A program made the translations under genes and the position numbers. DNA of 64,000 nucleotides from a virus (lineage: Duplodnaviria; Heunggongvirae; Uroviricota; Caudoviricetes): the IMG/VR virus record IMGVR_UViG_2675903313_000009. One strand, 5' to 3'. The notes under the pieces were generated by a model that ran no database searches, was not told the DNA's origin, and saw only the letters and a program-made list of their open reading frames with translations. The first letter of the stretch is position 1; the number at the start of each line of letters is the position of its first letter. This document shows, one piece after another, positions 1,587 through 51,378 of this stretch.

Positions 1587-1601
1587 AAAACAATTTGTTT
1601 T
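1587..1601 (+). promoter_or_regulatory. Early operator motif copy (AAAACAAnTTGTTT palindrome)
   Basis: aaaacaatttgtttt; one of about 10 near-identical palindromes in 5' leaders. Confidence 0.5.
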
Positions 1602-1636
1602 CTACCTTTTGTTAATTGAGATAATAAGCCACATAA

Positions 1637-1652
1637 GAAAACAAATTGTTTC
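1637..1652 (+). promoter_or_regulatory. Early operator motif copy
   Basis: gaaaacaaattgtttc, 12 nt upstream of ATG 1665. Confidence 0.5.
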
Positions 1653-1664
1653 GGAGTGGTTGAA

Positions 1665-1964
1665 ATGTTGAACATTACCCAAGCCTACCAGGTGGCATTG
1701 ATCAGTTCATCTCATACATCAGAGGAAGATGCTCGCCGATTCATGATCGCAAGCAATGAGCTGGATTGGGTTTCACAAATTGATGGCGGTTGTATTGTCC
1801 ACGCCGGGTTACAGGATGATGTCTGGAAAGACGACTTGCGTCGATATGGTATATCCGAAGGCGCGATTGCTAACATTCAGAAAGTACTTGATGTAGGCTT
1901 TGACTCTGTACATTTTGATTGTGGTGCACCGGTCGTTGAAGGGCTAGAGTGCTGGCAATGGTAA
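1665..1964 (+). CDS. Hypothetical early protein, acidic
   Basis: ORF with GGAG RBS; preceded by operator motif. Confidence 0.5.
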   Translation: MLNITQAYQVALISSSHTSEEDARRFMIASNELDWVSQIDGGCIVHAGLQDDVWKDDLRRYGISEGAIANIQKVLDVGFDSVHFDCGAPVVEGLECWQW

Positions 1965-2000
1965 TCCGGCAATCGCTTCATACTAGACAACGGAGAATTT

Positions 2001-2186
2001 ATGCTTAAAGAAGACTCATATCTACTAAAGGCGCTTGAAATGCGTGGCGTTGAACCTACAGTGAAAAACGCTCACGATATCTACCTTCAGTTTTCACCGG
2101 AGCTGAAACGGTTCATAAATCAATACGGGGTTAATGACTCAAGTGTTAAAGCAATGATAGATGATGAATTAGACCATCTCATCTAA
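2001..2186 (+). CDS. Hypothetical small protein
   Basis: 61-aa ORF with GGAG RBS. Confidence 0.4.
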   Translation: MLKEDSYLLKALEMRGVEPTVKNAHDIYLQFSPELKRFINQYGVNDSSVKAMIDDELDHLI

Positions 2187-2338
2187 TCGTTTCCTATGAT
2201 AATGGTTTTCACTTTGAGATTGTTATTTTTCATAGCTAAAGCTGATGTTTGTGGAAGGTGGATTGATAAACGGATGCGTATTTAGGTTATACAAGTGAGA
2301 AAATTGATAATATATAAACGCGATTTTTATGTGATGGA

Positions 2339-2908
2339 ATGGATGTGATGGAAACCCAGAACCAACAAACAAAACCTCTGAATAACATTTATGCGTGGAT
2401 TCTAGCGTTCATGCCTTTCTTCTTTGGAGTATCGCCGGAAGAGTATACCAATTACGCTATTATAATTGGGGGTGTAACTACCATCGGTTTGTTAGTAGCT
2501 GACAGAATGGCTCTATCGGAGTCTGGCTGTGAACCACCTTCAATTCTATGGGGGGTATTCCTCCTGCCTGTCTATCTCTGGAAGCGCGCGACTATTACAA
2601 AAGGCAGCAGAGTGCCATTTATCATAATCGTTGCGTCGCTGGCTTGGATTATCTTCATCGGCATCCCACACAAGGACGAGGTTGCTCTTGAAGAAGCAGC
2701 CTGCCCTCTCGTGACAACTATTCTGAAAGAGAATAACGGTTCGACTGCACCAAAATGTATGAAGGTGACAATAGAGGACAAGGTGACGGATAAGTTCTAT
2801 AGAGCAACGGCTACACTAGACAATGGTAATGACATTAACATTACTCTGGAACTTACCGGCGACAGGAACTTCTACGTCCGTGTTCCAAATGTTTATCTGA
2901 ACAACTAA
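2339..2908 (+). CDS. Predicted membrane protein, unknown function
   Basis: Several hydrophobic segments in N-terminal half; start codon uncertain. Confidence 0.5.
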   Translation: MDVMETQNQQTKPLNNIYAWILAFMPFFFGVSPEEYTNYAIIIGGVTTIGLLVADRMALSESGCEPPSILWGVFLLPVYLWKRATITKGSRVPFIIIVASLAWIIFIGIPHKDEVALEEAACPLVTTILKENNGSTAPKCMKVTIEDKVTDKFYRATATLDNGNDINITLELTGDRNFYVRVPNVYLNN

Positions 2909-2999
2909 CGGTTGTAACTTATTGATAATGGCGGTCACAATTTGATTCTTTTCTATAAGAATCCGTTGATCGCCACTACTCCCCTACCATACCCGCAAT

Positions 3000-3780
3000 C
3001 ACATCCTTAAATATCAATAAGTTATAGTTGTTTATACAATCAAGAAAACAACTGAATAACAGATCAACGAAACATCAACGCTTTCACCCGATTTGGTCTA
3101 AAAAATTGACGTTTTCACACATCACTTCTTATACCCGTAACTCTACGCAGCAGACAGCGCCACAGCGTCCAATTTTCACCACAGACGACCCAACACACTA
3201 CCAATAAAAACACACGCTCAAAATCGCTCCCGTTGCGTTACACAACCATATAAACAACTTATTTTCAGGCATAACAAAACAACTAAATAACACAAATGCC
3301 ATTCCCAAAAACAACCAACCTCTTTATGGCAGGCTACCGAAAAGACCCACCTCTTCTCCCCAGGCTACCGGACAACCAACCTAACTTTCACAGGCAATCC
3401 GAAAACATTCATACGCGCGATACCCACGACACGCCATTACCCAAACAGCGAAGAAACACCAGAATCACTGAAACCCCAACGAAGCCTGTAACCGCAAGGT
3501 TTCTCTCAATCCCAAAAGACACGAAACATAACAATCACGGGAAACGCCATTACCCAATACACGAATAACTACAAAAGCCTTTCACACACTCCAGACAAAC
3601 AACTCAAACACAATAACGAAAGGAATCGCCCACCTGCCATTACTCCATACACGGAGAAGAACAATCACCAAAACGACGAGAACACCCCATAGAAGAACCA
3701 CCGCAAAACGAACGAAACCACAGACACCGACAGAGAAAACAACACACCCAATTCACCAACAGAAATAGTCGCCGTATAGA
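3000..3780 (+). other. CA-rich, G- and T-poor non-coding tract (candidate long non-coding transcript)
   Basis: About 780 bp with strong A+C excess on + strand; only a low-complexity ORF without RBS; internal degenerate repeats (caaccaacct..ggctaccg). Confidence 0.4.
3106..3134 (+). promoter_or_regulatory. Candidate sigma70-type promoter reading into the CA-rich tract
   Basis: TTGACG, 17-nt spacer, TTATAC. Confidence 0.35.
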
Positions 3781-3892
3781 ACGTTCTGGAAGGAGTGAGC
3801 ATTAACGCCTATAGAGAGGTTGAGACAGATAAAACACGAAGAAAACACAACATGTATAGCGAACAAGACAGGTATGTATAAGTGGGGAGGGA

Positions 3893-3916
3893 AGGAGGGG
3901 TGTCGCCTCCTTTTTC
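3893..3916 (+). terminator. Rho-independent terminator at end of CA-rich tract
   Basis: Stem aggagg/cctcct with 7-nt loop then TTTTT. Confidence 0.7.
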
Positions 3917-3980
3917 GTATTTATTCAACTCCTGATTTTCATCCCCCGTAACACCCCTACGGTCAGCCTTCGGTCCATAC

Positions 3981-4120
3981 AGGGAAAAGGCTGCATCCCG
4001 CTACAGAAACGGCTGGGTTGCCTTCGGGGAACGGCTGGAGGTTTTCAGGGAAACGGTCGAGTTGCCTATGTGGATTTCGGGAAAAGGCTCGATGCCGGTT
4101 CAGGAACGGTGGCGTACCGG
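3981..4120. repeat. Direct-repeat array A: about 6 units of ~21 bp with core GGGAAACGGC
   Basis: Units agggaaaaggctg / agaaacggctgg / ggggaacggctgg / agggaaacggtcg / gggaaaaggctcg / aggaacggtgg at about two helical-turn spacing. Confidence 0.6.
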
Positions 4121-4445
4121 TATAGCGAGAGGGAGAGTTGCGGCTACCCACCTGTAATGTGCGGGAAGAAGAGAGGCGCTCACGTGCAGGCAGACTAACT
4201 TACCGTTGGACTCCCTTTGAATGCCCAACTACAGCGTAATTGTGCCAGAGAGTCAGCGGGTCACAATCGATTTCAGTAGGTTTTCGGGGAGAGGATTATT
4301 CTGCTCACCAGCCACTTTCGGCCACTAAATCAGAATAATGTAAAAAGTGTACTCGGTACTAAACCTGAAAACTCACTGCCAAAACCACATTCACCGGAAT
4401 AAAATCCTTTTTCGCCTGTGCGTTATTGCGATAATAACACCATCA

Positions 4446-4466
4446 AGAAAACATGTTGTTTAAGGA
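4446..4466 (+). promoter_or_regulatory. Early operator motif copy
   Basis: agaaaacatgttgtttaagga, immediately upstream of ATG 4474. Confidence 0.5.
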
Positions 4467-4473
4467 TTGCTTT

Positions 4474-4803
4474 ATGTTTGCAAATATCGACATCAACCAA
4501 ATCAAGAAAATGACTCAAAAAGAGTTTGACCAGTTTTATGAGTTAGAAGGTTGGTCTTCCACGCTGATCAATTCGCGCTGGGTGCTTGAGCTGATGACTC
4601 GTGATGATGCTCCTGCTTTGATTATTTGCGACCTGGGTGATGATGCTGACTTTATGGATATGAGCGAATTTTGTGTGGACACATACAACCGCAGCCAGAA
4701 GTACTACTTCACATGCGATAGCGAGAATGACGTTATTTCTAAGGTCTATCTTCACCTTGTCCAGCATTGGGACGTTCAGGAGTTTCTTGAAGTATTCGAG
4801 TAA
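4474..4803 (+). CDS. Hypothetical small acidic protein
   Basis: ORF with AAGGA RBS; Asp/Glu-rich. Confidence 0.5.
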   Translation: MFANIDINQIKKMTQKEFDQFYELEGWSSTLINSRWVLELMTRDDAPALIICDLGDDADFMDMSEFCVDTYNRSQKYYFTCDSENDVISKVYLHLVQHWDVQEFLEVFE

Positions 4804-4928
4804 CCCCAACCAAAGCCAGCATTGCTGGCTTAATTTCTCTATAGCCGCAGGGAAGAACCTGCATATCGCTCATGCACCTGATCAATATGCTTTGTAGCCG
4901 TTTTCTTACTGGTATTATTTACGCCATT

Positions 4929-4950
4929 GAGAAAACAAGTTGTTTACGGA
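4929..4950 (+). promoter_or_regulatory. Early operator motif copy
   Basis: gagaaaacaagttgtttacgga upstream of ATG 4957. Confidence 0.5.
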
Positions 4951-4956
4951 GTTGTA

Positions 4957-5268
4957 ATGAAAAAATCATTGGTTCTTGGTCTGGACAAAGACCAGAAGAA
5001 AAAAGAGAAGCCTGCGCTGGTTGCTCAATTAACTTTGCTGGACATCGTTGCCAATGGAACCTCTATTCGTCTGTTCCGTGAAACAGCGGTGTCTTTCGAT
5101 AAAAACACCTTTACTCGTTATGTAATGAATGTTCGTCGCCAGCGTGGAAAAGGCTGGGTGGCATTTCAAAGAATGTGGCCGGAACATCAGCTCGAACTGG
5201 CTTTGATGGAAGTTAACCGCGTGGCCCAGCAAGAAATTCAGAGAGCATCAGTGATGGCAATAGCCTGA
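4957..5268 (+). CDS. Hypothetical small basic protein
   Basis: ORF with RBS; followed by terminator. Confidence 0.5.
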   Translation: MKKSLVLGLDKDQKKKEKPALVAQLTLLDIVANGTSIRLFRETAVSFDKNTFTRYVMNVRRQRGKGWVAFQRMWPEHQLELALMEVNRVAQQEIQRASVMAIA

Positions 5269-5302
5269 TAATGTGCAAGTGGTAATTAGTCGACCGTACG
5301 AC

Positions 5303-5331
5303 AGCCCCGCCATCCTTACGGGGCTTTTTTT
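5303..5331 (+). terminator. Rho-independent terminator
   Basis: Stem agccccg/cggggct followed by T7. Confidence 0.85.
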
Positions 5332-5336
5332 GTATT

Positions 5337-5352
5337 GTAAGTACATACTTAC
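5337..5352. promoter_or_regulatory. Palindromic TAAGTA..TACTTA motif copy
   Basis: gtaagtacatacttac, perfect palindrome. Confidence 0.4.
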
Positions 5353-5395
5353 GATCATAGAATAGAAAAATAACCAATACACTACGGAGAGTGAA

Positions 5396-5791
5396 ATGAC
5401 CGTTAAACGCGAAAAACTGACAGTTGATGTTTACTATGCCTCTGAAACCGCCGAAGGTAAGAATGTGGCAAAAATCACCGTTGTTACGTACAACACCGAA
5501 ACTGGTGCCGAAGTCCAGGCCAGTACGATCGTGCGTAAAGGTGATGCCTCCGGCGGCGAGTACGCGACTCAATACCAGTCCATTCTCGATGCAACTGACC
5601 CGCTGCTGCTGAAAATCGAGAACTACTTCCGCCAGGTTGATGAAGAGGTGTTTGAAACCATGATGAATATGGTTAACACCGTATTCGCCTCCAGCCTGAA
5701 TACCAACACTACCTGGATTGGTCAGTACGGCCTGCGCATTACCTCTGGCATTCCTGCCGACACCTTAATCCCTGAAAGCGTATTCGCTTAA
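5396..5791 (+). CDS. Hypothetical protein
   Basis: 131-aa ORF with GGAGAG RBS. Confidence 0.5.
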   Translation: MTVKREKLTVDVYYASETAEGKNVAKITVVTYNTETGAEVQASTIVRKGDASGGEYATQYQSILDATDPLLLKIENYFRQVDEEVFETMMNMVNTVFASSLNTNTTWIGQYGLRITSGIPADTLIPESVFA

Positions 5792-5835
5792 TCCTCTTTA
5801 AATGGCGCGTAAACCGCGCCATTTTATTAAGCCCG

Positions 5836-5856
5836 ATAACAATTTGTTTTCTGCCT
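5836..5856 (+). promoter_or_regulatory. Early operator motif copy
   Basis: gataacaatttgttttctgcc. Confidence 0.5.
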
Positions 5857-5908
5857 TATCTGATTTGTGAAAATGATTTCACTGAAGCAAGTTAATAAGG
5901 AAACCATC

Positions 5909-6283
5909 ATGGGACTTGATATCTATATCGAGACACAGCCTAAAAACGATCTGAATAACGAGGCATCCAGAAAGCAGGTTGCTTACTTCCGTAAGTTCAA
6001 TGCGCTCGTTGGGTGGATGGAGCGCAACGTAGGTGAAGTCGAAAATTGTGAGCTTTTAGAATTAACGATGAATGACATTTGTTTTCTGAAGGCTCATTTG
6101 ATGCACATAAACGAAAGTAATTGCGAAGAGTACTTGCCTACCCGGGAAGGTTTTTTCTTCGGCAGTCAGGAGTACGATGAAGGTTACTGGCATGATGTGG
6201 GGCAGTTGAAAGAGCTTGTGGAAGATCTGATTAAGAACCACGACTTTCACAATAACAGACTGACCTTCTGCGCCTGGTGGTAA
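5909..6283 (+). CDS. Hypothetical acidic protein
   Basis: ORF with TAAGGAAA RBS; start chosen at ATG 5909 rather than upstream GTG. Confidence 0.5.
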   Translation: MGLDIYIETQPKNDLNNEASRKQVAYFRKFNALVGWMERNVGEVENCELLELTMNDICFLKAHLMHINESNCEEYLPTREGFFFGSQEYDEGYWHDVGQLKELVEDLIKNHDFHNNRLTFCAWW

Positions 6284-6285
6284 AT

Positions 6286-6429
6286 ATGGGCGATTTCAAG
6301 AAACGCCTGAAGGAAAGAGCCGAGATGGTCAGAAAGCAAAACGCCTCTTCTGTCATCAGATACGCAAGGCAGTTTAGTCGCAACAACAAATCAGTTGAGG
6401 AAAAGATCCTTAGCGTAATCGGTCGATAA
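6286..6429 (+). CDS. Possible small basic protein (47 aa), translationally coupled
   Basis: ATG 3 nt after upstream stop; below ORF-track size cutoff. Confidence 0.3.
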   Translation: MGDFKKRLKERAEMVRKQNASSVIRYARQFSRNNKSVEEKILSVIGR

Positions 6430-6434
6430 TTATT

Positions 6435-6458
6435 AAGGCCATCAATGCTGGTGGCCTT
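6435..6458 (+). terminator. Hairpin, possible terminator
   Basis: Stem aaggcca/tggcctt; weak T tract. Confidence 0.4.
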
Positions 6459-6483
6459 AAATGACCATCCTGTTTCCCGCAGG

Positions 6484-6560
6484 CTAAAAACACCAACCTC
6501 TTACCTCCAGGCAACCGACAAACCCACCTGTTCCCGTCCGGCTACCGCAACTTTCCACTT
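6484..6560 (+). repeat. Second copy of CA-rich element (about 75% similar to 3312..3395)
   Basis: caccaacctctt..ggctaccg..ctttccac shared with the large CA-rich tract. Confidence 0.45.
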
Positions 6561-6596
6561 TGACGCCTTATTCGTACAACGATAATTAACACCAAC

Positions 6597-6620
6597 AAGA
6601 AAACAATTTGTTATTTACGA
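6597..6620 (+). promoter_or_regulatory. Early operator motif copy
   Basis: caagaaaacaatttgttatttacga upstream of ATG 6634. Confidence 0.5.
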
Positions 6621-6633
6621 TAAGGAATTAATC

Positions 6634-7116
6634 ATGAATTTTATCGCTACTGTAAACGCACCCGCACATGGCAATATCGCTGTAACGTTCTCTGACATTG
6701 AAAAACGAGTACTTGGTGCATGGCGCGACAATGAGACGGTAGAACTGTCAGCACAAGAAAAATGCATTATTGCACGCGACATCATTGGCAATCGTCGTTA
6801 CTCGCGGGTATTTGAGAAAGCGTATGTGGTAAATTCTGGATTCGGAACGTTCGTCTTTCCGGTGCGCTCCGGGCGATTCTGCCAGTCCAAGCTGATTGAG
6901 TTCGCTACGCAGATTTCTGTCTGGATTAAAACTCAATCGTCGTTCAAATTTTCCGACGATGAAGCAGTATCGCAGGGGATGCGGATCGCCAACAATGCGA
7001 TTAAATGCAAAAACATTACGTATACCGCTGGCGTTGATACATGGAAACTGTTTTGCGCTAACTTTATGCTGAATGTATACGCAAGCAACCGCATCCACAT
7101 CCTTGATGGCGTGTAA
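6634..7116 (+). CDS. Hypothetical protein
   Basis: 160-aa ORF with TAAGGAA RBS. Confidence 0.55.
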   Translation: MNFIATVNAPAHGNIAVTFSDIEKRVLGAWRDNETVELSAQEKCIIARDIIGNRRYSRVFEKAYVVNSGFGTFVFPVRSGRFCQSKLIEFATQISVWIKTQSSFKFSDDEAVSQGMRIANNAIKCKNITYTAGVDTWKLFCANFMLNVYASNRIHILDGV

Positions 7117-7124
7117 CTGAGAAG

Positions 7125-7147
7125 AGGGCCAGAAACGGCCCTTTCTC
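7125..7147 (+). terminator. Hairpin terminator after 6634..7116
   Basis: Stem agggcc/ggccct then TTCTCT. Confidence 0.5.
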
Positions 7148-7255
7148 TATAGCCACCAGCTGCCGCAGGGAAATTTTCAGAAACGGCGAGGAACGTATTC
7201 ATGAGCCGACGGGGAACGGCCAGGATTTTTTCGGGAAACGGCTGCATTCGCCTTT
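7128..7255. repeat. Direct-repeat array B: about 4 units with core G(G)AAACGGC
   Basis: cagaaacggcc / cagaaacggcg / ggggaacggcc / gggaaacggctg; same core as array A. Confidence 0.55.
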
Positions 7256-7660
7256 GTGTAGAAAAAACATCGGGAAGCTGGTGGAATCCAACCAGCGGTT
7301 GTCGGACAGGTGAGCGGGGAAAATTATGATGACTTTCGTCACCTGAGACATCCAGATTTCTTTCGTGGCATAATCACATACGTGATTAAGTGGTGTGATT
7401 ATGTGAAAAATCACGCGCACATAATACGCGAGCGGATACAGAACAAAACAAAATGCCGATCCGCACCGACAAATAAACGCGGATCACATAGCAAGACTAA
7501 AAGCCAATGATTAACCATACTCTATAGCGCAATATAACGCGTTTTAAGCGCGTTAATGTGTTAAGTAATGGGCATGTACTGGTAAGGATATAAAAGCGCG
7601 TCTATGGCGTTATTTTGGCGCTTATTTTTATGTTGTTGGAGTGAGTTAAAGACAATAAAA

Positions 7661-7680
7661 ACGCGCCATCATTGGCGCGT
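7661..7680. promoter_or_regulatory. GC-core palindrome acgcgcca..tggcgcgt
   Basis: 20-bp inverted repeat in AT-rich intergenic region. Confidence 0.3.
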
Positions 7681-7707
7681 TATGGTGGGAGTATTGGAAA
7701 CGAAAAA

Positions 7708-7726
7708 AGCGCCCATAGTGGGCGCT
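7708..7726 (-). terminator. 19-bp palindrome agcgcccatagtgggcgct with flanking A/T runs (copy 1); likely bidirectional terminator
   Basis: Perfect inverted repeat directly downstream of minus-strand gene 7732..7962. Confidence 0.55.
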
Positions 7727-7731
7727 CGATT

Positions 7732-7962
7732 TTATTTGTGTAAACTGATTTTAAATCCCATTTCTACAAACGCTTTTAGCATTAAAAATATATCAGCGTC
7801 GTTCACGTCTGCTTTTTTTCGCTCCTGGTCGCTCAATAAGTCAATTTTGTGCGTCGTTTCATCTATAAGCTCGACTGCGCGCCCAGCGTAACCAGCGATC
7901 CCAGCGATGCGATTAACATAATATTCATTATGGACGTTAACGCCAGCGATAAGAACAAACAT
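7732..7962 (-). CDS. Hypothetical small protein
   Basis: 76-aa ORF in AT-rich minus-strand block. Confidence 0.4.
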   Translation of the reverse strand: MFVLIAGVNVHNEYYVNRIAGIAGYAGRAVELIDETTHKIDLLSDQERKKADVNDADIFLMLKAFVEMGFKISLHK

Positions 7963-7983
7963 GATTAAGCTCCTTAAAAAAAA

Positions 7984-8187
7984 TTAAATAGAATTTTGAA
8001 GTTTTCCGATTAATGCGCTTAAACGTAAGTATTCACGTTTGCGCTTGCAATCTCGCTTGCTGTTAAGCAAATCAGAAAACGTAAAATTTAATTGGTCGCG
8101 TTGCGCGATTAAATCATCGATTAATTCCAGTTTATAAGCGCGATACTTTGCGCGATATTCCGCGCGGATCTTGTCATAGCTGACCAT
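7984..8187 (-). CDS. Hypothetical small basic protein
   Basis: ORF with GGAG RBS before ATG at 8187; Lys/Arg-rich. Confidence 0.4.
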   Translation of the reverse strand: MVSYDKIRAEYRAKYRAYKLELIDDLIAQRDQLNFTFSDLLNSKRDCKRKREYLRLSALIGKLQNSI

Positions 8188-8204
8188 TTTTAAAGCTCCT
8201 TTAA

Positions 8205-8223
8205 AGCGCCCATAGTGGGCGCT
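8205..8223. promoter_or_regulatory. 19-bp palindrome agcgcccatagtgggcgct (copy 2)
   Basis: Identical to 7708..7726; lies between two minus-strand genes. Confidence 0.4.
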
Positions 8224-8235
8224 TGATTCCATTAA

Positions 8236-8895
8236 TTACGCTTTGAAAGCATCAGCTAAATAATTGTAGAAATCATTTTTAATGAAGCGATATTGCTGAG
8301 TACCAGCTTTCGCGCTCCCAGCTCCTTTGACTTTTTCAACAAGTCCAAGACGTTCGCAAAGATTGATCAACTGGTTGGCTTGAGTATAGCCAGCGTCCAA
8401 TTTAATTTCACACGCTTTTTTAGCTTCATTCATTAAATCGAAAACAGCGCCATTGGTGAACGTGTCGATCTCGTCGTTAATCATATCGATTAAAGCGAAT
8501 ACACGAGATCCTGACATATCAGCGATGGAATAAACGCATTTACCAGATTTAATTGATTTAACCAGATAAACCAGTTTTTCCAGAGAATAACTATTAGTCA
8601 TTGCATCACGGAAAAATACTTCTGGCGCTTGTTTGCTTGCTTTAATCGCATAGTAGAAAACAGAGCATAATTTTTCGTCTTCTACAGCGTTTACAACGTT
8701 GTTGATGAAGTAAGCAAGTTTCGTGGTCGCAGCTTGCATATTTGCTTTGTCTGTTTTAGTGTGCGTACCATTTTTATAATGTTCGTTATATGTTTGAGTC
8801 GCCAGATCTGCTTTTTCGCGCAGCTCGTCGGATACAATAGATGCAGCTTCAATGATGGACTTTTTAGAAATGATAACGTTAGCCATGATGGACAT
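8236..8895 (-). CDS. Hypothetical protein
   Basis: 219-aa ORF, AT-rich. Confidence 0.55.
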   Translation of the reverse strand: MSIMANVIISKKSIIEAASIVSDELREKADLATQTYNEHYKNGTHTKTDKANMQAATTKLAYFINNVVNAVEDEKLCSVFYYAIKASKQAPEVFFRDAMTNSYSLEKLVYLVKSIKSGKCVYSIADMSGSRVFALIDMINDEIDTFTNGAVFDLMNEAKKACEIKLDAGYTQANQLINLCERLGLVEKVKGAGSAKAGTQQYRFIKNDFYNYLADAFKA

Positions 8896-9140
8896 CCTTA
8901 CGAAAAATTAAAATGAATTTATTTTTTACTGTCGTTAGCTAGCTCGCTTTCGACGAGTTCAATTATCGATACGTGAAAAAAGATTGCAAGTATTTTTTTT
9001 AAATTTTTTGCAGGGATGAAAGCCCTAGAAATAAAAGCGAGATCGTCGAAGGTGTTCCCTAAATAAATAATCAATTCGGGCCTTTAACCTTATATATTTA
9101 TACAGAGTGGCATTGAAAGAGTTTTAAATGAATGGCATGT

Positions 9141-9168
9141 AAAATAATAACCGGGCTTAGCCGGTTAT
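9141..9168 (-). terminator. Rho-independent terminator (minus strand) after 9182..9706
   Basis: Stem aaccgg/ccggtt followed by T-run on minus strand. Confidence 0.65.
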
Positions 9169-9181
9169 TACCCTTATAGAT

Positions 9182-9706
9182 TTAAAATGGAAGGATTCGT
9201 TCAACCCAATCGAAGAAAACAAGTATTTTTCTGCCGTCTTCTAACTTAAGAGTGACCTGGCAAGCATCAACGCCTCTTGACACCCCTTCAATTTCACGAC
9301 CGTCTGCCATGTAGACCCTTATAGATTGGTCGTTTTGATAAGCCTTGCGACATATCGCAAAAAAGTCACGGCGTGATGGCTGATTGTCAACATAGTCTGG
9401 ATGTATTGTTAGCCTACCTTTGAACTCGCGAGCAATGCCATCGATTACACCTGATTCAATTGTGCTAATGCGCTCAAGTGGGAGTCTTATACGATTTTCT
9501 TTATCATATGGAAGCGGGCATAAATCTAGCTTATTGCGGGAAGGCATTGTCCCCTGAACGTACATGCAAAACACCTGACCGTCTTCAAGCGTGACTCTTA
9601 CAGGAATGTTGTTCTTCCGCCAGAACATAAGTATGTTTTCAGCATGTTCGTAGTCTCGCGGCCAGACTTCAGCCGGTATGCCGTAGGTGATGTCCAATGT
9701 TCTCAT
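9182..9706 (-). CDS. Hypothetical protein
   Basis: 174-aa ORF; overlaps upstream gene by 4 nt. Confidence 0.5.
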   Translation of the reverse strand: MRTLDITYGIPAEVWPRDYEHAENILMFWRKNNIPVRVTLEDGQVFCMYVQGTMPSRNKLDLCPLPYDKENRIRLPLERISTIESGVIDGIAREFKGRLTIHPDYVDNQPSRRDFFAICRKAYQNDQSIRVYMADGREIEGVSRGVDACQVTLKLEDGRKILVFFDWVERILPF

Positions 9707-10317
9707 TCTGATACTCTTAGAGGTGTTTTCAGCAACCCAAATTTAAATTCTTTGTTACCAACGACAAAGAAGGGAACCTCAACATAGATTTTTTTATCGA
9801 CGGATTTAGAGTTAGCTGTTTTCTGTATGTCACGAACGATACGTTTTGAGATATTTTCATCGATAAACAATACCTTTCCACTTGTATTCCCTTCAGCCTT
9901 GGCGTAAGTAACGATAGGCTCTTCATTGCCAACCCTAATGTTTACTTGGCAACCTGTTGTAGCCATTTCATCACAGTAAAGTGTGCCGTCTTGAACTTCT
10001 AAAACAATTCCAGATGGCTTCATGGCTTCGTCAGAGTTTACATTAACGTTTTCTGGTACAGCGGTCCCGTTAATTTGCAACCGTAATCTTTCTTTTCCTC
10101 CATTAAGTATTGTTTCTTCTGCGTTGTCTGAGAATCTGAACCAAACTGGCTGATTCAGACCTCGTGATTTGTATTCTACTACGTCTTCGGAGGTAAACAT
10201 GCTGTACGTTTTTTGCATGTCAGAGACGAAATCTGATAATGCGTTGGCGGAAAACGCCGGGAGGCATATACAAGCAAGGAGTAACGAAATTTTCATTTTC
10301 ATATCATGATAATCCAA
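9703..10317 (-). CDS. Predicted secreted protein (N-terminal signal peptide)
   Basis: N-terminus MKMKISLLLACICLPAFSANA; true start probably a few codons inside the ORF. Confidence 0.55.
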   Translation of the reverse strand: MDYHDMKMKISLLLACICLPAFSANALSDFVSDMQKTYSMFTSEDVVEYKSRGLNQPVWFRFSDNAEETILNGGKERLRLQINGTAVPENVNVNSDEAMKPSGIVLEVQDGTLYCDEMATTGCQVNIRVGNEEPIVTYAKAEGNTSGKVLFIDENISKRIVRDIQKTANSKSVDKKIYVEVPFFVVGNKEFKFGLLKTPLRVSE

Positions 10318-10806
10318 TTATTTAACATCACACTTTCTAAGTTTTTCTATTTGTTCTAATTTTTCATGATCATCATTTAGATTTCCTTCGACTATCTCCG
10401 TTTCAAGTTTGCTGATTAGCATGTTAAGTGCGTTGTAGTTATTGCATTTTACTTTGTAGGCGTAGTATGACCTTGTCCCTGGTTTTTGTACACCCATATC
10501 ATTAAAGTTAGAGCTTAAAGTATAACCTTCAAGTTCAACCCCTTTTATTGTTGGAAGAATTATATTTAATGGTTCTAATTTAAATGGGTAGATATAAATA
10601 TGTGATATGAAGTACTCTTCTGAAGAGATTTTCTTCATGTCTTTTGTGATTGAAGCTGAATATTTACGGTTCCGAGTGATATAAAATTTTGTGCATTTGT
10701 ACAACTCTAGGTTGAATAGATAATATTTATCTTTAAAAAGAACATCTTTTCCATGTGATATTTTATGTCGTAAAGAGTTAATTATTTTGTTTATGGAAAT
10801 ACTCAT
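10318..10806 (-). CDS. Hypothetical protein, Lys-rich
   Basis: 162-aa ORF abutting downstream gene; low GC. Confidence 0.5.
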   Translation of the reverse strand: MSISINKIINSLRHKISHGKDVLFKDKYYLFNLELYKCTKFYITRNRKYSASITKDMKKISSEEYFISHIYIYPFKLEPLNIILPTIKGVELEGYTLSSNFNDMGVQKPGTRSYYAYKVKCNNYNALNMLISKLETEIVEGNLNDDHEKLEQIEKLRKCDVK

Positions 10807-10951
10807 CTACAGTATCCGACCTTAGTTATCAATTGAAAAGCCTACAAATATCGTTCTGCCAATCAAGAAATTTTTTCAGCCGGAGGTGTGTGCTTCAAAA
10901 AATGTGATGAATATCACATGCAGGTGCTCTCATACACCTGCATGTAGACTA

Positions 10952-11551
10952 TTAATCATTCAATAATCTATATTTTCTTTTGATTAAATCTTCACCTTTT
11001 TTGGTGAACACAAAACCAAATTGCGATTTTTTGTTCAGCCTAAGTACTCTGTTATCCAACGCATCGGTTGATGGAATCAATGTTTGATCATCTATCCAAT
11101 TAAGTAGCGTAAGAAAGTTCAGCAGCCTCAACGTTGTTGTGCGAAGCTCTTTCGATATATTTTCAATGCTGGCAATTCGTCTTTCTTTTTTCTCAGGTGG
11201 TACAGATAATTGTTCTTGAGGTTTCGTGGATAGATAATCAATTTCGTTTGCTGCATCGAATGATATGTGTGGCGTAATTTTGCTAAAAAAGCCTTTCGCT
11301 GACTCACTTGATAATAAACCAGACCTATTCATATCGTTTGTTATTCTGTACAGGAGTGGACTGTGTTTCATTTCAGGATAACGTTGATAAAAGTTAAGCA
11401 ATTCAAAAGCAGCATTAGCGCCAACAAGAAAATCAGAAGGATCGCTGACTTTCCAGAAAGAATGATTTTTCTTAGCGCCAGTGGTGTCAACAAATGATAA
11501 TTCTTTTAACCAACTCATGATGTGCTCCTTTCTAACAAGTGAGCACATCAT
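10952..11551 (-). CDS. Hypothetical protein
   Basis: 199-aa ORF, low GC. Confidence 0.5.
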   Translation of the reverse strand: MMCSLVRKEHIMSWLKELSFVDTTGAKKNHSFWKVSDPSDFLVGANAAFELLNFYQRYPEMKHSPLLYRITNDMNRSGLLSSESAKGFFSKITPHISFDAANEIDYLSTKPQEQLSVPPEKKERRIASIENISKELRTTTLRLLNFLTLLNWIDDQTLIPSTDALDNRVLRLNKKSQFGFVFTKKGEDLIKRKYRLLND

Positions 11552-11583
11552 AGAATTAGTAGATAGGGGGTAAATATGAAATG

Positions 11584-11862: not shown

Positions 11863-11864
11863 AA

Positions 11865-46050: not shown

Positions 46051-46470
46051 ATGCTAAATTATCATGACAATACGCGTTCTATGCAGACGATCCGCACCAA
46101 TACTGCGGTCATCGACAGCTTTCCTATGCGTATTCACAACAGTGAAGACGCAGTAGAAGTGCGACGTATGTTGTGCCGTGAATCAGCTAACCGCCAGCAC
46201 TTCATCGTCACTTTTAAGAGCGATGTGGCGCGTGCCGAAAAGATCTCTAATTCTACGTCACTGGTTAAACCGTTGGCCGAGGTTGTCGCTAACGGTAAAC
46301 GAACCTCTTTTGTTTTAGATGTTGCTGAACAATATCCTGACTTGAAGTGTTTAGATCGTGATATTTCTTCACGAATCAAACAAGTTGTAGAGTCTTTTAT
46401 GAAGAAATTCTGTAAAATCGATGATATGGAACCATCAACGGCACAGAATACTTCATGGCACCATCTCTAA
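46051..46470 (+). CDS. Hypothetical protein
   Basis: 139-aa ORF. Confidence 0.45.
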   Translation: MLNYHDNTRSMQTIRTNTAVIDSFPMRIHNSEDAVEVRRMLCRESANRQHFIVTFKSDVARAEKISNSTSLVKPLAEVVANGKRTSFVLDVAEQYPDLKCLDRDISSRIKQVVESFMKKFCKIDDMEPSTAQNTSWHHL

Positions 46471-47228
46471 TTGGTCAGGCGAACAGATTAATCCCTGAAA
46501 TAGAAGACTACAGCAAGGTCTTGTCTGAAATGCCGAGAGCGACGAGAATTATCGCTCTCGGTGAGTTCTATTTTATCTCCCGAGGTTTCGATCTAATTCG
46601 ATTTACCGAATACGAGCTTGTTGATTCGGCCTATGAACGCTGTATTGTTGGCGAGTGTCTTGAGTCATGTGATCCTGATTACCAAGAGCAGGAAGTTAAG
46701 CGACTCAAACGTGCTGGTTACACACCTCTTGAGATAGGAGCAGAAATTGAATCCTACAAGTTGCATGTGGGGCAGCCAGTCCAAACAGTCTTCCGCGTGG
46801 CCTACTGCGAGTTTCCAATCAAGGATAAATCTGGAGTAAAAGTCAGCGCCAAGCAGATTAGAGGGGTTTTTACTCATGCTGATTATATGGGATTAGGCAT
46901 CGCAAGTTTTGCTTACCTTTATCTCGTAGATAAGTATCAGTACTTGGTTTGCGATACGTTACAGACGGTAAAAGGCGCAACTCTTTGGGCTGTGAGTATG
47001 CGCAAACATGGACTGGTCGAAATTTACGATACGAAGAACGAAAATTTTATAGAGGAATTGGGTGAGGATGCCTGTGGCGTAAGTGGTTTTATTCCGTGGG
47101 ATATCGGTAAGTCTGACGGAGGCCAGATGCGAAGACGTGAAGAGTGGGGGACTAATAAAATCAATCTCACCCCAGGTGCTTGTACTCATATAGTGAACAT
47201 TCTGACTAAACGATCTATGAATCAATAA
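46455..47228 (+). CDS. Hypothetical protein with possible GNAT-like motif
   Basis: HADYMGLGIAS weakly resembles acetyltransferase motif A; overlaps upstream gene. Confidence 0.45.
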   Translation: MAPSLIGQANRLIPEIEDYSKVLSEMPRATRIIALGEFYFISRGFDLIRFTEYELVDSAYERCIVGECLESCDPDYQEQEVKRLKRAGYTPLEIGAEIESYKLHVGQPVQTVFRVAYCEFPIKDKSGVKVSAKQIRGVFTHADYMGLGIASFAYLYLVDKYQYLVCDTLQTVKGATLWAVSMRKHGLVEIYDTKNENFIEELGEDACGVSGFIPWDIGKSDGGQMRRREEWGTNKINLTPGACTHIVNILTKRSMNQ

Positions 47229-47250
47229 ACCCGCTACGGCGGGTTTTTTG
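47229..47250 (+). terminator. Rho-independent terminator
   Basis: Stem acccgc/gcgggt then T6. Confidence 0.85.
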
Positions 47251-47325
47251 TTATTAAGCCCCCCCTATGTACCTATCATTAAACCTTTACACCGCAGCCG
47301 TAGGCATTTAGGCTATATCACATAT

Positions 47326-47348
47326 AAGAAAACAAGTTGTTTCAGACG
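47326..47348 (+). promoter_or_regulatory. Early operator motif copy upstream of parA-like gene
   Basis: taagaaaacaagttgtttcagacg. Confidence 0.5.
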
Positions 47349-47377
47349 ATAATTATATACGCAAAGGGAACTCTCCA

Positions 47378-48046
47378 ATGACCAAGATCTTTGTGGTTGG
47401 CGGCACAAAGGGCGGGCCTGGCAAATCCACCGTTGCCCAGCAAATTGCCGTTTGCCTGAAAGTCAAAAAGAAGAAGAAGGTTTATATTACCGATATAGAT
47501 ATTCAGCGCACGACAACGAGCTGGTGTGAAGACCGTCGACAGAACGAAGACCTTGAGCTGATTCCTTTTGCATACGTTCAGGATGACATCATTAAGCACC
47601 TAAAATCGCTTCAGGGTAGAGCTGAGTTTGTAGTGGTAGATGCTGGTGGCTTCGACTCCGAAATTCAGCGACAAGCGATGCTGATGGCTGACGTTATCAT
47701 TATCCCGCTGCGTCCTAAGCGTCGTGATTTGAAATCTTTACGTGACATCGATCCTATTATCGACAATGTTCGCAATGTAAACGATAAAGTGAAGGTCCGC
47801 GCGGTCATGAACCAGTGCCCGGCTTTGCCATCACAAGTGTCTCGCATTCTGGCGGCTAAAGAGATTGTTGAGACGTTTGGCATCGAGTCTGCGCCAGTCA
47901 ATCTATATAACCGCAACGTCTATGATGATGCGGAAGAGTCTGGTCGTTCTATCTTTGAAATGACCGGTAGCGAGCGCGACAAAAAGGCGGAAGCCGAGTT
48001 TGAAGAATTTGTAGATTATCTGTTGAGTCTGGAGGAAGAAGAATAA
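47378..48046 (+). CDS. parA: ParA/MinD-family partition ATPase
   Basis: Deviant Walker A GGTKGGPGKST; 222 aa. Confidence 0.85.
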   Translation: MTKIFVVGGTKGGPGKSTVAQQIAVCLKVKKKKKVYITDIDIQRTTTSWCEDRRQNEDLELIPFAYVQDDIIKHLKSLQGRAEFVVVDAGGFDSEIQRQAMLMADVIIIPLRPKRRDLKSLRDIDPIIDNVRNVNDKVKVRAVMNQCPALPSQVSRILAAKEIVETFGIESAPVNLYNRNVYDDAEESGRSIFEMTGSERDKKAEAEFEEFVDYLLSLEEEE

Positions 48047-48405
48047 TGTCCATGAAAATGGGTGACCTAGCAAAGCGCAAAGAGCCTGATGCACCGGCTA
48101 AGAACACAACTCCTTTGCGCCAACCAGTCAGACCACAGGGACGCCCGACTCGTGGCAAAGAGAAAATTAAAAGCCGCACAATGTCACTGGAGGACGAATA
48201 CTTCGAACTGCTGGAGATGATGAAGTTCATCCCTCGCTTCGAGAAGTTCACTCGTTCTGACGTGATTCGTGCTGCTATTTTCCATCTTGCGGAGAAGACA
48301 CCGCAGGAAATCGAGGACATCGTGAAACTTAACGAGGCGATCACAGCTGCCGATGTCACGATGCGTACCGATGAAATCAAACGCGAGTTGATGAAGAAAG
48401 GTTAA
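48046..48405 (+). CDS. Small partition partner (ParG/ParB-like centromere-binding candidate)
   Basis: 119-aa basic protein coupled to parA (ATGTCC overlapping stop). Confidence 0.5.
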   Translation: MSMKMGDLAKRKEPDAPAKNTTPLRQPVRPQGRPTRGKEKIKSRTMSLEDEYFELLEMMKFIPRFEKFTRSDVIRAAIFHLAEKTPQEIEDIVKLNEAITAADVTMRTDEIKRELMKKG

Positions 48406-48412
48406 TTTTATT

Positions 48413-48437
48413 GAGGTGCTGCTTGGCACCTCTTTCT
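48413..48437 (+). terminator. Terminator after partition operon
   Basis: Stem gaggtgc/gcacctc then TTTCT. Confidence 0.65.
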
Positions 48438-48449
48438 ATAGGTTCCCTA

Positions 48450-49169
48450 ATGCTCTACAAATATATTGGAAGTGAAGATTCGCAAAAAGTGTTACGTAAC
48501 CTCAAACGGTTTGTAGAGGACGGCACTATCTCTGCTAGCGCACCTTCTTCATTCAACGACCCATCAGAGTTCAAAGTTTCGATAACGATGGGAGGTACAG
48601 AAGTGGAGCACCGGAAACACTTTGAAGACAATGGATGTAAGGATTTTTCCTTTGAAGACTGGGATGCTGTAGCTCCTGAAGCTGCAAAATCGTTGGCTGT
48701 GGATTTGCGGAAAGAATCATTAGGGGCTTTTGGTGTGGTGTGCTTGTCACCAAACGAAGATAACATCTTGATGTGGTCACATTACTCAGTGTCGCATAAA
48801 GGTTTCTGCATAGGCTTTGATGATGATTTTGTTACCTCTATTGAGGGGTATCACAGCTTTGATAATGTGAAATATATACCTTCTGTTCCCGTGTTCGATG
48901 AAGTTACAGATGAGTTTAAGGTACTTTTTGATAAGCTCTTTTTCTACAAGCACGAATGCTGGAAATATGAGGAAGAACAAAGGGTTATTACTAAAAAAAT
49001 AGGCGCTCAGGCATTTGATAAGAAATATATTAGAGAGATCATTCTTGGACATAACGTTTCTCCTGAAGTAGAAGAATATGCCCGGACACAGCTAGACACG
49101 AGCATCGAGGTTTACAAAATGAGTACACCTGATGATGGTTATCTTCTTGTCAAAGAAAAGCTGAAGTAG
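48450..49169 (+). CDS. DUF2971-like protein
   Basis: N-terminal LYKYIGSED and FNDPSEF, later MWSHY; recalled as DUF2971 hallmarks, not verified. Confidence 0.5.
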   Translation: MLYKYIGSEDSQKVLRNLKRFVEDGTISASAPSSFNDPSEFKVSITMGGTEVEHRKHFEDNGCKDFSFEDWDAVAPEAAKSLAVDLRKESLGAFGVVCLSPNEDNILMWSHYSVSHKGFCIGFDDDFVTSIEGYHSFDNVKYIPSVPVFDEVTDEFKVLFDKLFFYKHECWKYEEEQRVITKKIGAQAFDKKYIREIILGHNVSPEVEEYARTQLDTSIEVYKMSTPDDGYLLVKEKLK

Positions 49170-49235
49170 CTCCAGACTTTCCTCAAATGATTATGTTGGG
49201 CGCTTTTCTTATTGAACTGGTTAGTGAGGCTAATA

Positions 49236-50408
49236 ATGGATTTGTTCTCAACCAAAATAGCAAAAAACAAGCTGCACGAATCTTTTAAACAGATTTATCA
49301 AGATAATACATATGCTCCAGTAAGAGAAGTGATACAGTCGTGGGGGCGTGGGTTACTGGAGCGTAGCGGTGAGCAGACTAAATTCGTTAAAGAGTTTCAG
49401 ACAACCTTCAATTCCGCCTTATGGGAATTGTATCTGAACGAAATGTTTATTCGTCTCGATTATTCTGTCGACTACACAAAAGACAGTCCCGATTTCTGTG
49501 TTACTACACCGTCAGGCTACCAGTTTAACGTCGAAGCTGTGATATCAGATCGGCCACATAATCCACCTGCAGGTGTTCTTTTTAGCGAATCAAAATTCAA
49601 ACATCAATCAACGCTAAAATTAATCGGAAAAATCAAAGACAAACATGATCTTTTTACAGGAGTTAATGGCAAAAAATTCCCGTACTCTACGATGTCTCAT
49701 GTAGTTAATAAGCCGTTTGTTCTGGCGCTTGCACCCTTTGACTCCGATTTATCATTGTCTCAAAATAACACAATCATCAATCGAGTGTTGTTTGGCATTG
49801 AGGAACCTACCACCAGAAATTTGGTGACTGGCAGCCAAACTAAAGTTACCTCAATCAAAAAGAATGAAGACGTTGAAATTCCATTAGGTATATTTACTAA
49901 CGACTCATATAAAGAAATAAGTGCGGTTATTTTCTCCACCACCGGCACTTTTGGAAAAGCCGTGGTTCAAAGCGGTATCGGTAGATATGTAAGGTCAACA
50001 CGATATCGAGCCATTGATGTGAATGATTTCATCGCCAATGAAGGGATGAAAAACGAGGGAAAGCACACACAAAGGATAGGACCTGATCATTTCATCACTA
50101 CATATCGGCATTTTTTAAATAACGAAGTCACTGGTGCGGATATTGTAGTTTGTCATTCCACTGCTCATGAAGAGACGCACTTTGACGGCCTTCATATTTA
50201 CTACAATCCTTTTGCGACAGTGCCACTGGACAGAAATATTTTCTTCCCCCCAGAGATAACTCATAATTTTTACGATATGGAAAAAGAACAGTCTGTTCAG
50301 AATCATCCTGATGGAGCGCTGGTATCTAGACAGGTTTTTGAACCAACTAGAGCACATTTTAGGTATATCATGAAACATTGGTTTCCAGGCTTTCTAAAAG
50401 ATGTTTAA
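49236..50408 (+). CDS. Hypothetical 390-aa protein, partner of DUF2971-like gene
   Basis: GTGAGG RBS; no recognisable motifs; lower GC than neighbours. Confidence 0.55.
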   Translation: MDLFSTKIAKNKLHESFKQIYQDNTYAPVREVIQSWGRGLLERSGEQTKFVKEFQTTFNSALWELYLNEMFIRLDYSVDYTKDSPDFCVTTPSGYQFNVEAVISDRPHNPPAGVLFSESKFKHQSTLKLIGKIKDKHDLFTGVNGKKFPYSTMSHVVNKPFVLALAPFDSDLSLSQNNTIINRVLFGIEEPTTRNLVTGSQTKVTSIKKNEDVEIPLGIFTNDSYKEISAVIFSTTGTFGKAVVQSGIGRYVRSTRYRAIDVNDFIANEGMKNEGKHTQRIGPDHFITTYRHFLNNEVTGADIVVCHSTAHEETHFDGLHIYYNPFATVPLDRNIFFPPEITHNFYDMEKEQSVQNHPDGALVSRQVFEPTRAHFRYIMKHWFPGFLKDV

Positions 50409-50432
50409 GCATCCTGCTGGTTGAATTTGGAA

Positions 50433-50486
50433 CCTGCTTCTGTATATAAATACTAAGTTACTTATTATTATTTATACGGAAGCAGG
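50433..50486. repeat. 54-bp AT-rich near-palindrome with GC clamps (copy 2)
   Basis: About 85% identical to 16705..16761; followed by TCTTTTT. Confidence 0.7.
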
Positions 50487-50572
50487 TCTTTTTCTATGCC
50501 AACTTCCCAGACACATTCCCTTCCGTTTCCACTTCCAAAAACTGCCACCAGTCGCTATCATCCGCTCATTGC

Positions 50573-50594
50573 AATAAGTAAGTAACTACCTATC
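50573..50594. promoter_or_regulatory. TAAGTAAGTA / GATAGGTA motif copy (inverted orientation)
   Basis: aataagtaagtaactacctatc. Confidence 0.35.
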
Positions 50595-50605
50595 TGGTGA
50601 GCCAC

Positions 50606-51346
50606 ATGAGCCAAATCTTTTTTGATACCATTGACAACGACCAGTACGACTTCATGACAGAGTGGAATACCGCTGTTATGGACAAGTGGGTCGCTGAAAA
50701 CATTGGTTTGTCGCGCTGCAAAGACGAGGCTGAACTCTTCGAGACGAAGTGGTTTGATTACCGCGATATGCATCCTCTCATGGCCACCTGTCTGTTTACG
50801 GAGGCGTACAAACGTCAGTACTCAAATATCATGCTGACGCACGGTCGCGAACACTTTGAAACAGCTCCGTTCACCACCGGGTTAAAACGCCTGCCTTATC
50901 AGGAGTTGTCGACTGCCAATAAAACGTCGCTATGGAAAGCACGCCAGTTTGCTGATCGCTATTGCTGTTCATACGACTACTTTATCTCCACGGTTCTTTC
51001 CGCAGCTGCACGGCGTCTGTGGGACAAGTTGCCGCGCCCACAGCATTTATGGCAGCCAGAACTGGTTGAGATATTCGAAGAGAAATTATCCAGACGCGCA
51101 ACAACCCGTCTGGATGACTCTCTGGTTAGCTTTAAGCATATGGGAGACATGCAGTTCAACCCGATTCAGGAAAGCTATTTTGAGTGGATTCTGGAGCGTT
51201 TGCGCATCATCCCCCGCAGCAAGCGCATACGCGCAATTTTCTCTGCTATCTGGCTAATGGAAATCGTTCCAGAGCGCCTTATTTCCGCCCACTTTCCAGA
51301 AGAACTGGAAGAAGCACGGCGGTTTATTGATCCCCTATCTAATTAA
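50606..51346 (+). CDS. Hypothetical protein (possible replication initiation or helicase loader, by position)
   Basis: ORF immediately upstream of DnaB-like helicase. Confidence 0.45.
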   Translation: MSQIFFDTIDNDQYDFMTEWNTAVMDKWVAENIGLSRCKDEAELFETKWFDYRDMHPLMATCLFTEAYKRQYSNIMLTHGREHFETAPFTTGLKRLPYQELSTANKTSLWKARQFADRYCCSYDYFISTVLSAAARRLWDKLPRPQHLWQPELVEIFEEKLSRRATTRLDDSLVSFKHMGDMQFNPIQESYFEWILERLRIIPRSKRIRAIFSAIWLMEIVPERLISAHFPEELEEARRFIDPLSN

Positions 51347-51353
51347 CTAATAC

Positions 51354-51378
51354 TAGAAAACAATTTGTTTAAAAAACA
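51354..51378 (+). promoter_or_regulatory. Early operator motif copy upstream of helicase
   Basis: ctagaaaacaatttgtttaaaaaac. Confidence 0.5.

Follow-up and report, generated by a model that had tools for sequence, protein, structure and literature searches.

Several regulons are known in which one protein acts at many scattered copies of one operator. The plasmid prophage P1 has a single operator dispersed over ~100 kb at promoters and one carrier-state repressor, C1; its operators include Op72, before the DnaB-like helicase gene ban, and the operator itself is an asymmetric 17-mer, ATTGCTCTAATAAATTT. The IncP plasmid RK2 has a global regulon under KorB and KorA. The KorB operator OB, TTTAGCSGCTAAA, is a 13-bp palindrome of the 6-1-6 type that occurs in a dozen copies at promoters, some of them centred at ~-39, and KorB is a partition protein that doubles as a global repressor, allowing a burst of expression on entry followed by shut-off. 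The omega protein of pSM19035 and ParG of TP228 are small centromere-binding ribbon-helix-helix proteins of type Ib, encoded beside a small Walker-type ParA; they have a flexible basic N-terminus and autoregulate their operon, and omega also represses several other promoters. Here we describe a dispersed dyad, which we call M1, in a 64,000-nucleotide stretch of viral DNA (the window; record IMGVR_UViG_2675903313_000009) that is, judging by its sequence, an SSU5/pHCM2/pLF82-type phage-plasmid of E. coli. We found no description of M1, or of an SSU5-type regulatory circuit, in the searchable literature.

Our preferred interpretation, which we hold with a little more confidence than doubt, is that M1 is the double-stranded DNA operator of one element-encoded repressor controlling a dispersed early or establishment regulon.

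The M1 dyad and its promoters

M1 is the 16-base motif AGAAAACAAnTTGTTT, with the 13-bp palindrome AAACAAnTTGTTT (6-1-6) as its core dyad. The window contains 19 matches at no more than two mismatches, against 0.55 expected, and none of 100 shuffled sequences reached 19. In a search that assumed no pattern, AAACAAnTTGTTT was the top-ranked perfect palindrome of the window (six perfect copies, with at most two in shuffles), and it ranked first again in the related E. coli element Cyrano (nine copies). The feature is real, strongly non-random and conserved in the family, with many copies far above chance. The original prediction, made from the letters of this DNA, had described ten copies of a palindrome, and with each site counted once there are ten strong copies, at the places it listed. 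They precede the ATGs at 1665, 4474, 4957, 5909, 6634, 16878 (terS, the terminase small subunit), 47378 (parA) and 51390 (a DnaB-like helicase). The nine or more operons it had proposed come down to eight clear promoter regions; a ninth is reached only if a weak site at 3252-3267 is included. The sites and the hairpin that accompanies two of them are as follows.

1588-1603, minus strand: M1, reverse, upstream copy, its dyad centred at 1594 (~-38 relative to the 1665 gene's promoter); 3' of the metG terminator
1636-1651, plus strand: M1, forward; extended -10 TGAGATAAT at 1617-1625, 10 nt upstream; ATG 1665
3252-3267, minus strand: weak M1 (two mismatches), ahead of the 3296 gene; at the homologous promoter, SSU5 has a single good copy and the relative L008 has two
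4446-4461, plus strand: M1, forward (AGAAAACATGTTGTTT); TGCGATAAT at 4427-4435; ATG 4474
4930-4945, plus strand: M1, forward, perfect; TGGTATTAT at 4910-4918; ATG 4957
5837-5852, minus strand: M1, reverse, 3' of a terminator; centre 5843, ~-38 of the TGTGAAAAT promoter at 5866-5874 (5909 gene)
6598-6613, plus strand: M1, forward; GATAAT at 6581-6586; ATG 6634
16797-16812, plus strand: M1, forward, copy 1 of the terS leader; CCTAATTAAAC upstream
16822-16837, plus strand: M1, forward, copy 2 of the terS leader, 25 bp from copy 1
16838-16867, plus strand: terminator-like GC hairpin with T run, separating the terS ATG at 16878 from the two M1 copies
47327-47342, plus strand: M1, forward, perfect, in the parA promoter; ATG 47378
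51355-51370, plus strand: M1, forward, before the DnaB-like helicase; ATG 51390

Two further matches are probably not sites. The one at 9214 falls on codons for RKILVFF inside an FljA-like coding sequence, and the one at 43540 lies inside an open reading frame. The hairpin in the terS leader ends 11 nt before the terS ATG, which suggests that late expression also requires antitermination or read-through.

The position of M1 is tied to the promoter. Across the window, Cyrano and Salmonella phage SSU5, the gap between the end of the -10 hexamer and M1 was 10 nt in 12 cases, 11 nt in five, 9 nt in two, and 8 nt and 4 nt in one each. The original prediction had stressed the leader position of the copies, and they do lie upstream of start codons, but in the same three genomes the start codon is anywhere from 8 to 65 nt away (median 19), so that the fixed distance is the one to the -10 hexamer and not to the start codon or Shine-Dalgarno sequence. 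The hexamers are GATAAT or TATTAT, often with TGn in front. If transcription starts 7 nt after the hexamer, a forward M1 would begin at about +4/+5, with its dyad centred near +13. Upstream of the terS and dnaB copies there is another element, CTAATTAA.

The two reverse copies (1588-1603 and 5837-5852) lie just 3' of terminator hairpins, outside the leaders, and are centred at ~-38 of the next promoter. The dyads of the reverse and forward copies are separated by exactly 51 bp at 1594/1645 and at three SSU5 promoters; this spacing occurs at four promoters in three genomes. The reverse copy at 5837-5852 has no forward partner in the window, and the arrangement is identical in two relatives, L008 and L009. 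At the level of sequence, then, both kinds of copy overlap the core promoter (-40 to +20), the forward ones at ~+13 and the reverse ones at ~-38.

The first 20 kb of the window is 96-98% identical to the E. coli phage-plasmids CMS-2020a, PhiR41_1 and Cyrano (pLF82), and matches SSU5 and Klebsiella relatives at ~80%. Window positions 1-16742 correspond to Cyrano 91527-108379, and from 16743 onward the match resumes at Cyrano position 1, the terminase. Because the two elements are nearly identical, the annotation of Cyrano and the published data on it can be transferred to most of the window. Relatives from Acinetobacter and Aeromonas have TerL proteins that are 59% and 53% identical, respectively, and both keep the overall gene order.

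Conservation of M1 across this family was seen directly. A position weight matrix (PWM) built from the ten window sites, applied to whole elements as the original prediction had proposed, gave 13-16 sites at a score of at least 20 in each of complete Cyrano and SSU5, at homologous promoters. In SSU5 the 16-mer is identical at these promoters, with diverged flanks. L008 and L009, whose FljA-like protein is only 53-57% identical to that of the window, have the identical 16-mer and the identical spacing from the -10 hexamer. Klebsiella-type and other relatives keep M1 at the parA and dnaB promoters despite diverged flanks; at parA it forms a 17-bp palindrome, GAAAACAAcTTGTTTTC, which is perfect in L011 and has one mismatch in L010. 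The 16-mer and its spacing are likewise unchanged in a deep relative (L023/L046) and in Yersinia pestis pMT1. At one homologous promoter (window 3252, SSU5 90737, L008 18916) the AGA arm that flanks the dyad differs in orientation while the dyad is kept. In IMG/VR, all contigs with several exact copies were SSU5-like; 74 of 120 loci were single copies on unrelated contigs and are probably chance matches. The Acinetobacter and Aeromonas relatives had no M1 site at a PWM score of at least 17, against 16-26 in enteric genomes. A palindrome of the Aeromonas relative, ATAACAnnnTGTTAT, was rejected, as it lies inside insertion sequence copies.

A repressor model and its candidates

In the model that we favour, one protein of the phage-plasmid, dimeric or in a higher oligomer, would bind the 13-bp dyad AAACAAnTTGTTT. 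This dyad would sit at ~+13 of sigma-70 promoters whose -10 is in many cases TGn-extended, and some promoters would have it at ~-38 as well; the bound protein would block RNA polymerase binding or escape. A single regulator would in this way keep a dispersed regulon off during plasmid carriage. The regulon would comprise eight promoters in the window and ~15-20 in the whole element, serving small early genes (probably for anti-defence or establishment), the DnaB-like helicase operon, the terminase leader and the parA operon. The regulator would most likely be the small protein encoded after parA (48046-48405), a partition adaptor repressing its own operon as well as the other promoters.

Such a mechanism would be of a known kind, a dispersed-operator regulon of the P1 C1, N15 CB, RK2 KorA/KorB or omega type. 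M1 works like the C1, KorA, KorB and omega operators and belongs to none of those regulons, AAACAAnTTGTTT being unlike any of their operators. As with the P1 operator, M1 is found at the promoter of a DnaB-type helicase. M1 differs from the asymmetric C1 17-mer in being a 6-1-6 dyad, the P1 par operon lies outside the C1 regulon, and no C1 homologue was seen in the window. KorB offers the same arrangement of copies at promoters and the same entry burst and shut-off as proposed here, but with another operator sequence and a ParB-type helix-turn-helix CTPase in place of a small ParG-like candidate. Omega and ParG resemble that candidate, whose ribbon-helix-helix fold is putative, but they read arrays of 7-bp or 4-bp repeats rather than a single 13-bp dyad, and the regulon proposed here is far larger and consists of phage early genes.

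Expression data for the carrier state come from normalised read counts for every Cyrano gene in the lysogen, with a median of 9.8 (PMC9928086, S1 Table). The first genes of the M1 operons read 7.1 (terS), 7.5, 12.8, 12.2, 5.7, 6.7, 25.5, 5.7, 7.0, 12.9 and 21.1 (helicase) (PMC9928086), so that these operons, with the exception of the parA operon, are at ~0.6-2.6 times the element median (5.7-25.5 against 9.8). The parA operon, with reads of 50, 89 and 55 (5-9 times the median), is the only M1 operon expressed in the lysogen, and high reads are what is expected of an operon encoding an autoregulating repressor. Ciprofloxacin induces Cyrano 39-fold (PMC9928086). The dimeric repressor and dispersed regulon of the original prediction are thus borne out as far as a promoter-linked dyad, conserved in the family and standing before near-background lysogen operons, can do so; transcription starts, binding, repression and the identity of the binder we infer.

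A repressor acting in the lysogen should be expressed there and conserved wherever M1 is found. Three nucleic-acid-binding candidates are expressed: the 119-aa protein encoded after parA, a 92-aa protein at 11584-11862 and the FljA-like protein. The genes that matter most are these.

47378-48046, plus strand: small Walker-type ParA, 222 aa, first gene of the parA operon
48046-48405, plus strand: 119-aa ParG/omega-like candidate centromere-binding protein and repressor, overlapping the parA stop codon
9182-9706, minus strand: FljA-family protein (PF03614) with a predicted tandem Hfq/Sm fold, a candidate RNA-binding regulator or a moron directed at host flagellin

The 119-aa protein is our best candidate for the M1 binder, although we think it less likely than not that it is the one. 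The 222-aa ParA matches the Pfam families MipZ, AAA_31, CbiA and ParA and is a small Walker-type protein without an N-terminal helix-turn-helix, as in type Ib partition systems; a ParA gene overlapped by that of a small protein is the layout of type Ib ParG/omega-type adaptors. Such adaptors autoregulate through sites in the parA promoter, and here M1 is the only notable or conserved dyad in that promoter. The 119-aa protein has a conserved MGDLAKR N-terminus, a basic arm, and a strand-like segment, IKSRTMS, followed by two helices. Homologues with as little as 48% overall identity keep the IKSRTMS segment and the helix FTRSDVIRAAI unchanged, which matches the invariance of M1. In the Acinetobacter and Aeromonas relatives, where M1 is absent, the partner of ParA is an unrelated protein.

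The 48046-48405 gene is annotated in Cyrano as a putative RelE/ParE toxin; its features fit a ParG/omega-like partition adaptor instead. The protein was found in 797 PLSDB plasmids, and a scan of IMG/VR for relatives of it returned only close ones. A divergent homologue on a 188-kb Klebsiella plasmid is a fragment truncated by an insertion sequence.

Other proteins were considered and set aside. For the missing repressor the original prediction had pointed to the small proteins at 16414 and 58696, which are winged-helix-like. Their Cyrano equivalents, CYRAN_123 and CYRAN_37, give background reads in the lysogen (7.8 and 6.4; median 9.8) and therefore cannot be what keeps M1 sites repressed in it. 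Weak homologues of the 16414 protein also occur in the Acinetobacter and Aeromonas relatives, which lack M1, and the protein is more likely tied to the second motif described below. Two ParB_N proteins are silent in the lysogen (5.0 and 9.5) and conserved in relatives without M1. CYRAN_45, an HTH (helix-turn-helix) 'putative repressor' just past the window end, is absent from SSU5, which shares M1; the UmuD-like CYRAN_98 has an S24 domain only; and none of the first genes of the M1 operons, which might have been Cro-like autoregulators, matches a DNA-binding family. A 92-aa ribbon-helix-helix-like protein (11584-11862; CYRAN_117-like) is expressed in the lysogen, but its predicted DNA-reading strand varies among elements that share M1 (TYCQVAL, VSCHLKL, KRVTLEV). 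Such variation is expected of an immunity repressor, and the protein is probably a private immunity repressor of the divergent helicase/ParB promoter region.

The 92-aa protein is encoded in a leftward operon (11584-13424, minus strand) in which the order, kept across the whole family, is UvsW-like helicase, 92-aa protein, variable cargo and FljA-like protein. The operon is expressed in the Cyrano lysogen (46-114). A 65-bp spacer (13425-13488) with a perfect TATAAT and a dyad separates it from the divergent ParB operon, which is silent.

A number of observations weigh against a DNA operator read by the parA partner. M1 is asymmetric, with the AGA extension conserved on the promoter-proximal side only. 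A consensus -35/-10 scanner, which requires a -35 hexamer, found no full sigma-70 promoter at the M1 sites; the M1 promoters may be of the extended -10 type or may depend on something else, and, as no -35 was found, their strength in the absence of any factor had to be assumed from the extended -10 hexamers. Low RNA in the lysogen does not separate repression from absent activation, and the single-site M1 promoters are more silent than the parA promoter. As for the 119-aa protein, its ribbon-helix-helix fold is putative; no centromere repeat array of the type Ib kind was found in 46400-49300; and pMT1 keeps M1 without the 48046-48405 gene. The presence and absence of the FljA-like protein, in turn, follow those of M1, and pMT1 has it too. 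Quite possibly the binder is a protein that we did not recognise.

Other explanations of the motif

The explanation that survives best after the repressor operator, though we think it unlikely, requires no dedicated regulator. The -10 hexamer, AACACCAACA and M1 would be one promoter-plus-leader cassette, spread by duplication and kept because it makes initiation, promoter escape or translation efficient, in the manner of the conserved regions found downstream in early promoters of phage T5 or of A/U-rich enhancers of translation. It fits with the conservation as a unit of a ~35-bp block from the -10 hexamer to the end of M1, including the intervening G-poor stretch, with the AGA arm being bound to the promoter side, and with leaders that are A/U-rich and unstructured. 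It leaves unexplained why the dyad symmetry is exact, why reverse copies stand alone at -38, why copies lie in tandem at a distance of 25 bp (terS leader and an L008 promoter), and why promoters with an extended -10 give near-background RNA in the lysogen. Moreover, sites are kept where the remainder of the cassette has diverged, as in the parA promoters.

Next in order, and also improbable, is that M1 acts as RNA. It would be a single-stranded operator at the 5' end of ~20 early mRNAs (5'-..AGAAAACAAnUUGUUU, an A-rich and then a U-rich half), and the FljA-family protein (9182-9706) would bind it, block translation and destabilise the mRNAs, as T4 RegA does and as Salmonella FljA does on fliC. 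As in those systems, a single protein would act on leaders just before the Shine-Dalgarno sequence, RegA having many early mRNAs as its targets. The element does encode an FljA homologue, a full-length match to PF03614 (E 5e-81, profile positions 1-170 of 170) with a predicted tandem Hfq fold. A hairpin or known RNA family can be ruled out: no M1 site matched an Rfam family and there is no stable or shared leader fold (minimum free energies of -2 to -4 kcal/mol, folding z-scores of -0.9 to +0.55). Variants in one half-site have no compensating change in the other. The palindrome, with a loop of 1 nt, could not fold, and an exact dyad is of no use to a protein reading a single strand. In contrast to the targets of FljA and RegA, M1 keeps a fixed distance from the -10 hexamer rather than from the ribosome site, and it has conserved reverse copies in untranscribed spacers beyond terminators. 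A symmetric DNA reader explains these reverse copies and the flipped orientation, which an RNA reader does not. The fliC leader of E. coli K-12, the known target of the FljA family, contains nothing like M1, and the FljA-like protein falls to 34% identity in a relative in which M1 is unchanged. A role as a moron directed at host flagellin accounts for the gene without M1.

It is less probable again that M1 is recognised by a DNA-binding protein of the host (Enterobacterales) which the element exploits. In favour of this, the motif is invariant in elements of Escherichia, Salmonella, Klebsiella, Enterobacter and Yersinia and missing from the Acinetobacter and Aeromonas relatives, and pMT1 tolerates the loss of the parA partner. 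However, the multi-copy occurrences in IMG/VR are all on SSU5-like contigs, and no E. coli regulator is known to have the M1 consensus (the LexA, CRP, Fis, IHF, KdgR, PurR, GntR-type and other sites differ), host chromosomes not being among the sequences scanned. Least probable by our reckoning are dispersed parS-like centromere sites serving partition only, with no transcriptional effect: a perfect copy at the parA promoter, the lack of a repeat array near the par locus and the resemblance of the ParA partner to a partition adaptor speak for them, but they give no reason for a fixed 10-11 nt from the -10 hexamers, and pMT1, which uses a P1-type ParAB, keeps the sites, though it diverged recently.

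A second dyad and the biology of the family

A second palindrome, TAAGTAnnTACTTA, is also dispersed over the window, with 16 matches against 1.95 expected; in many cases it is lengthened to TAAG-TAAGTAnnTACTTA-CTTA. Its sites (5338-5351, 13475-13488, 20271-20284, 25766-25779, 32258-32271, 39178-39191, 50579-50592, 55843-55856 and 59359-59372) are intergenic, in late, replication and ParB-operon regions, and TGn-TAAGAAT-like -10 hexamers follow ~8-13 nt downstream of them. Cyrano and SSU5 have ~35 sites per genome. Unlike M1, this palindrome has analogues in the relatives from Acinetobacter (AGTAAGCGCTTACT, ~24 sites) and Aeromonas (AGTAAnnnnTTACT, 12 sites). These sites look like another class of promoter, served by a separate factor that may be the winged-helix-like protein at 16414.

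Other features were seen in passing. The Aeromonas relative (CP053880.1, L221 39237-39554) encodes an Hfq of its own immediately before the DnaB-like helicase, which is a second case of an Sm-type RNA binder in this phage-plasmid superfamily. Positions 8000-12000 of the window are low in GC (0.36-0.40 against ~0.47), and where the window has open reading frames at 9703-10317 and 10318-10806, Cyrano has a lipoprotein gene instead; the stretch looks like a variable cargo slot within the lysogeny operon. There is a cluster of four tRNA genes at 60126-60646. The last (60562-60646) scores 47.3 against the Rfam tRNA-Sec threshold of 47 and probably corresponds to the tRNA-Ser of the Cyrano annotation.

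SSU5-type phage-plasmids are common in Enterobacterales and include pHCM2 of S. Typhi, pLF82/Cyrano and resistance-carrying Klebsiella elements; ~800 PLSDB plasmids have this terminase and parA partner. A large part of Y. pestis pMT1 is related to them. pMT1 (L216/L218, NZ_CP010021.1) keeps M1, the FljA-like gene and the helicase operon, and its parA-partner-dnaB-primase segment has been lost to an F-like backbone with a P1-type ParAB. It is thus a natural deletion able to test the parA-partner hypothesis.

Together, M1 and the second dyad provide an explicit, testable map of two promoter classes with a short list of candidate regulators, and the two unusual candidates make the M1 regulator directly testable. 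Should the improbable RNA explanation be true, ~20 early mRNAs would be translationally silenced by one Hfq-like repressor, a RegA-like post-transcriptional lock on lysogeny, and Salmonella FljA, the repressor in fliC phase variation, would be a domesticated phage regulator. If instead M1 is bound by the parA partner, a partition adaptor would have the further role of silencing phage early genes, and plasmid maintenance and lytic control would be linked in one protein.

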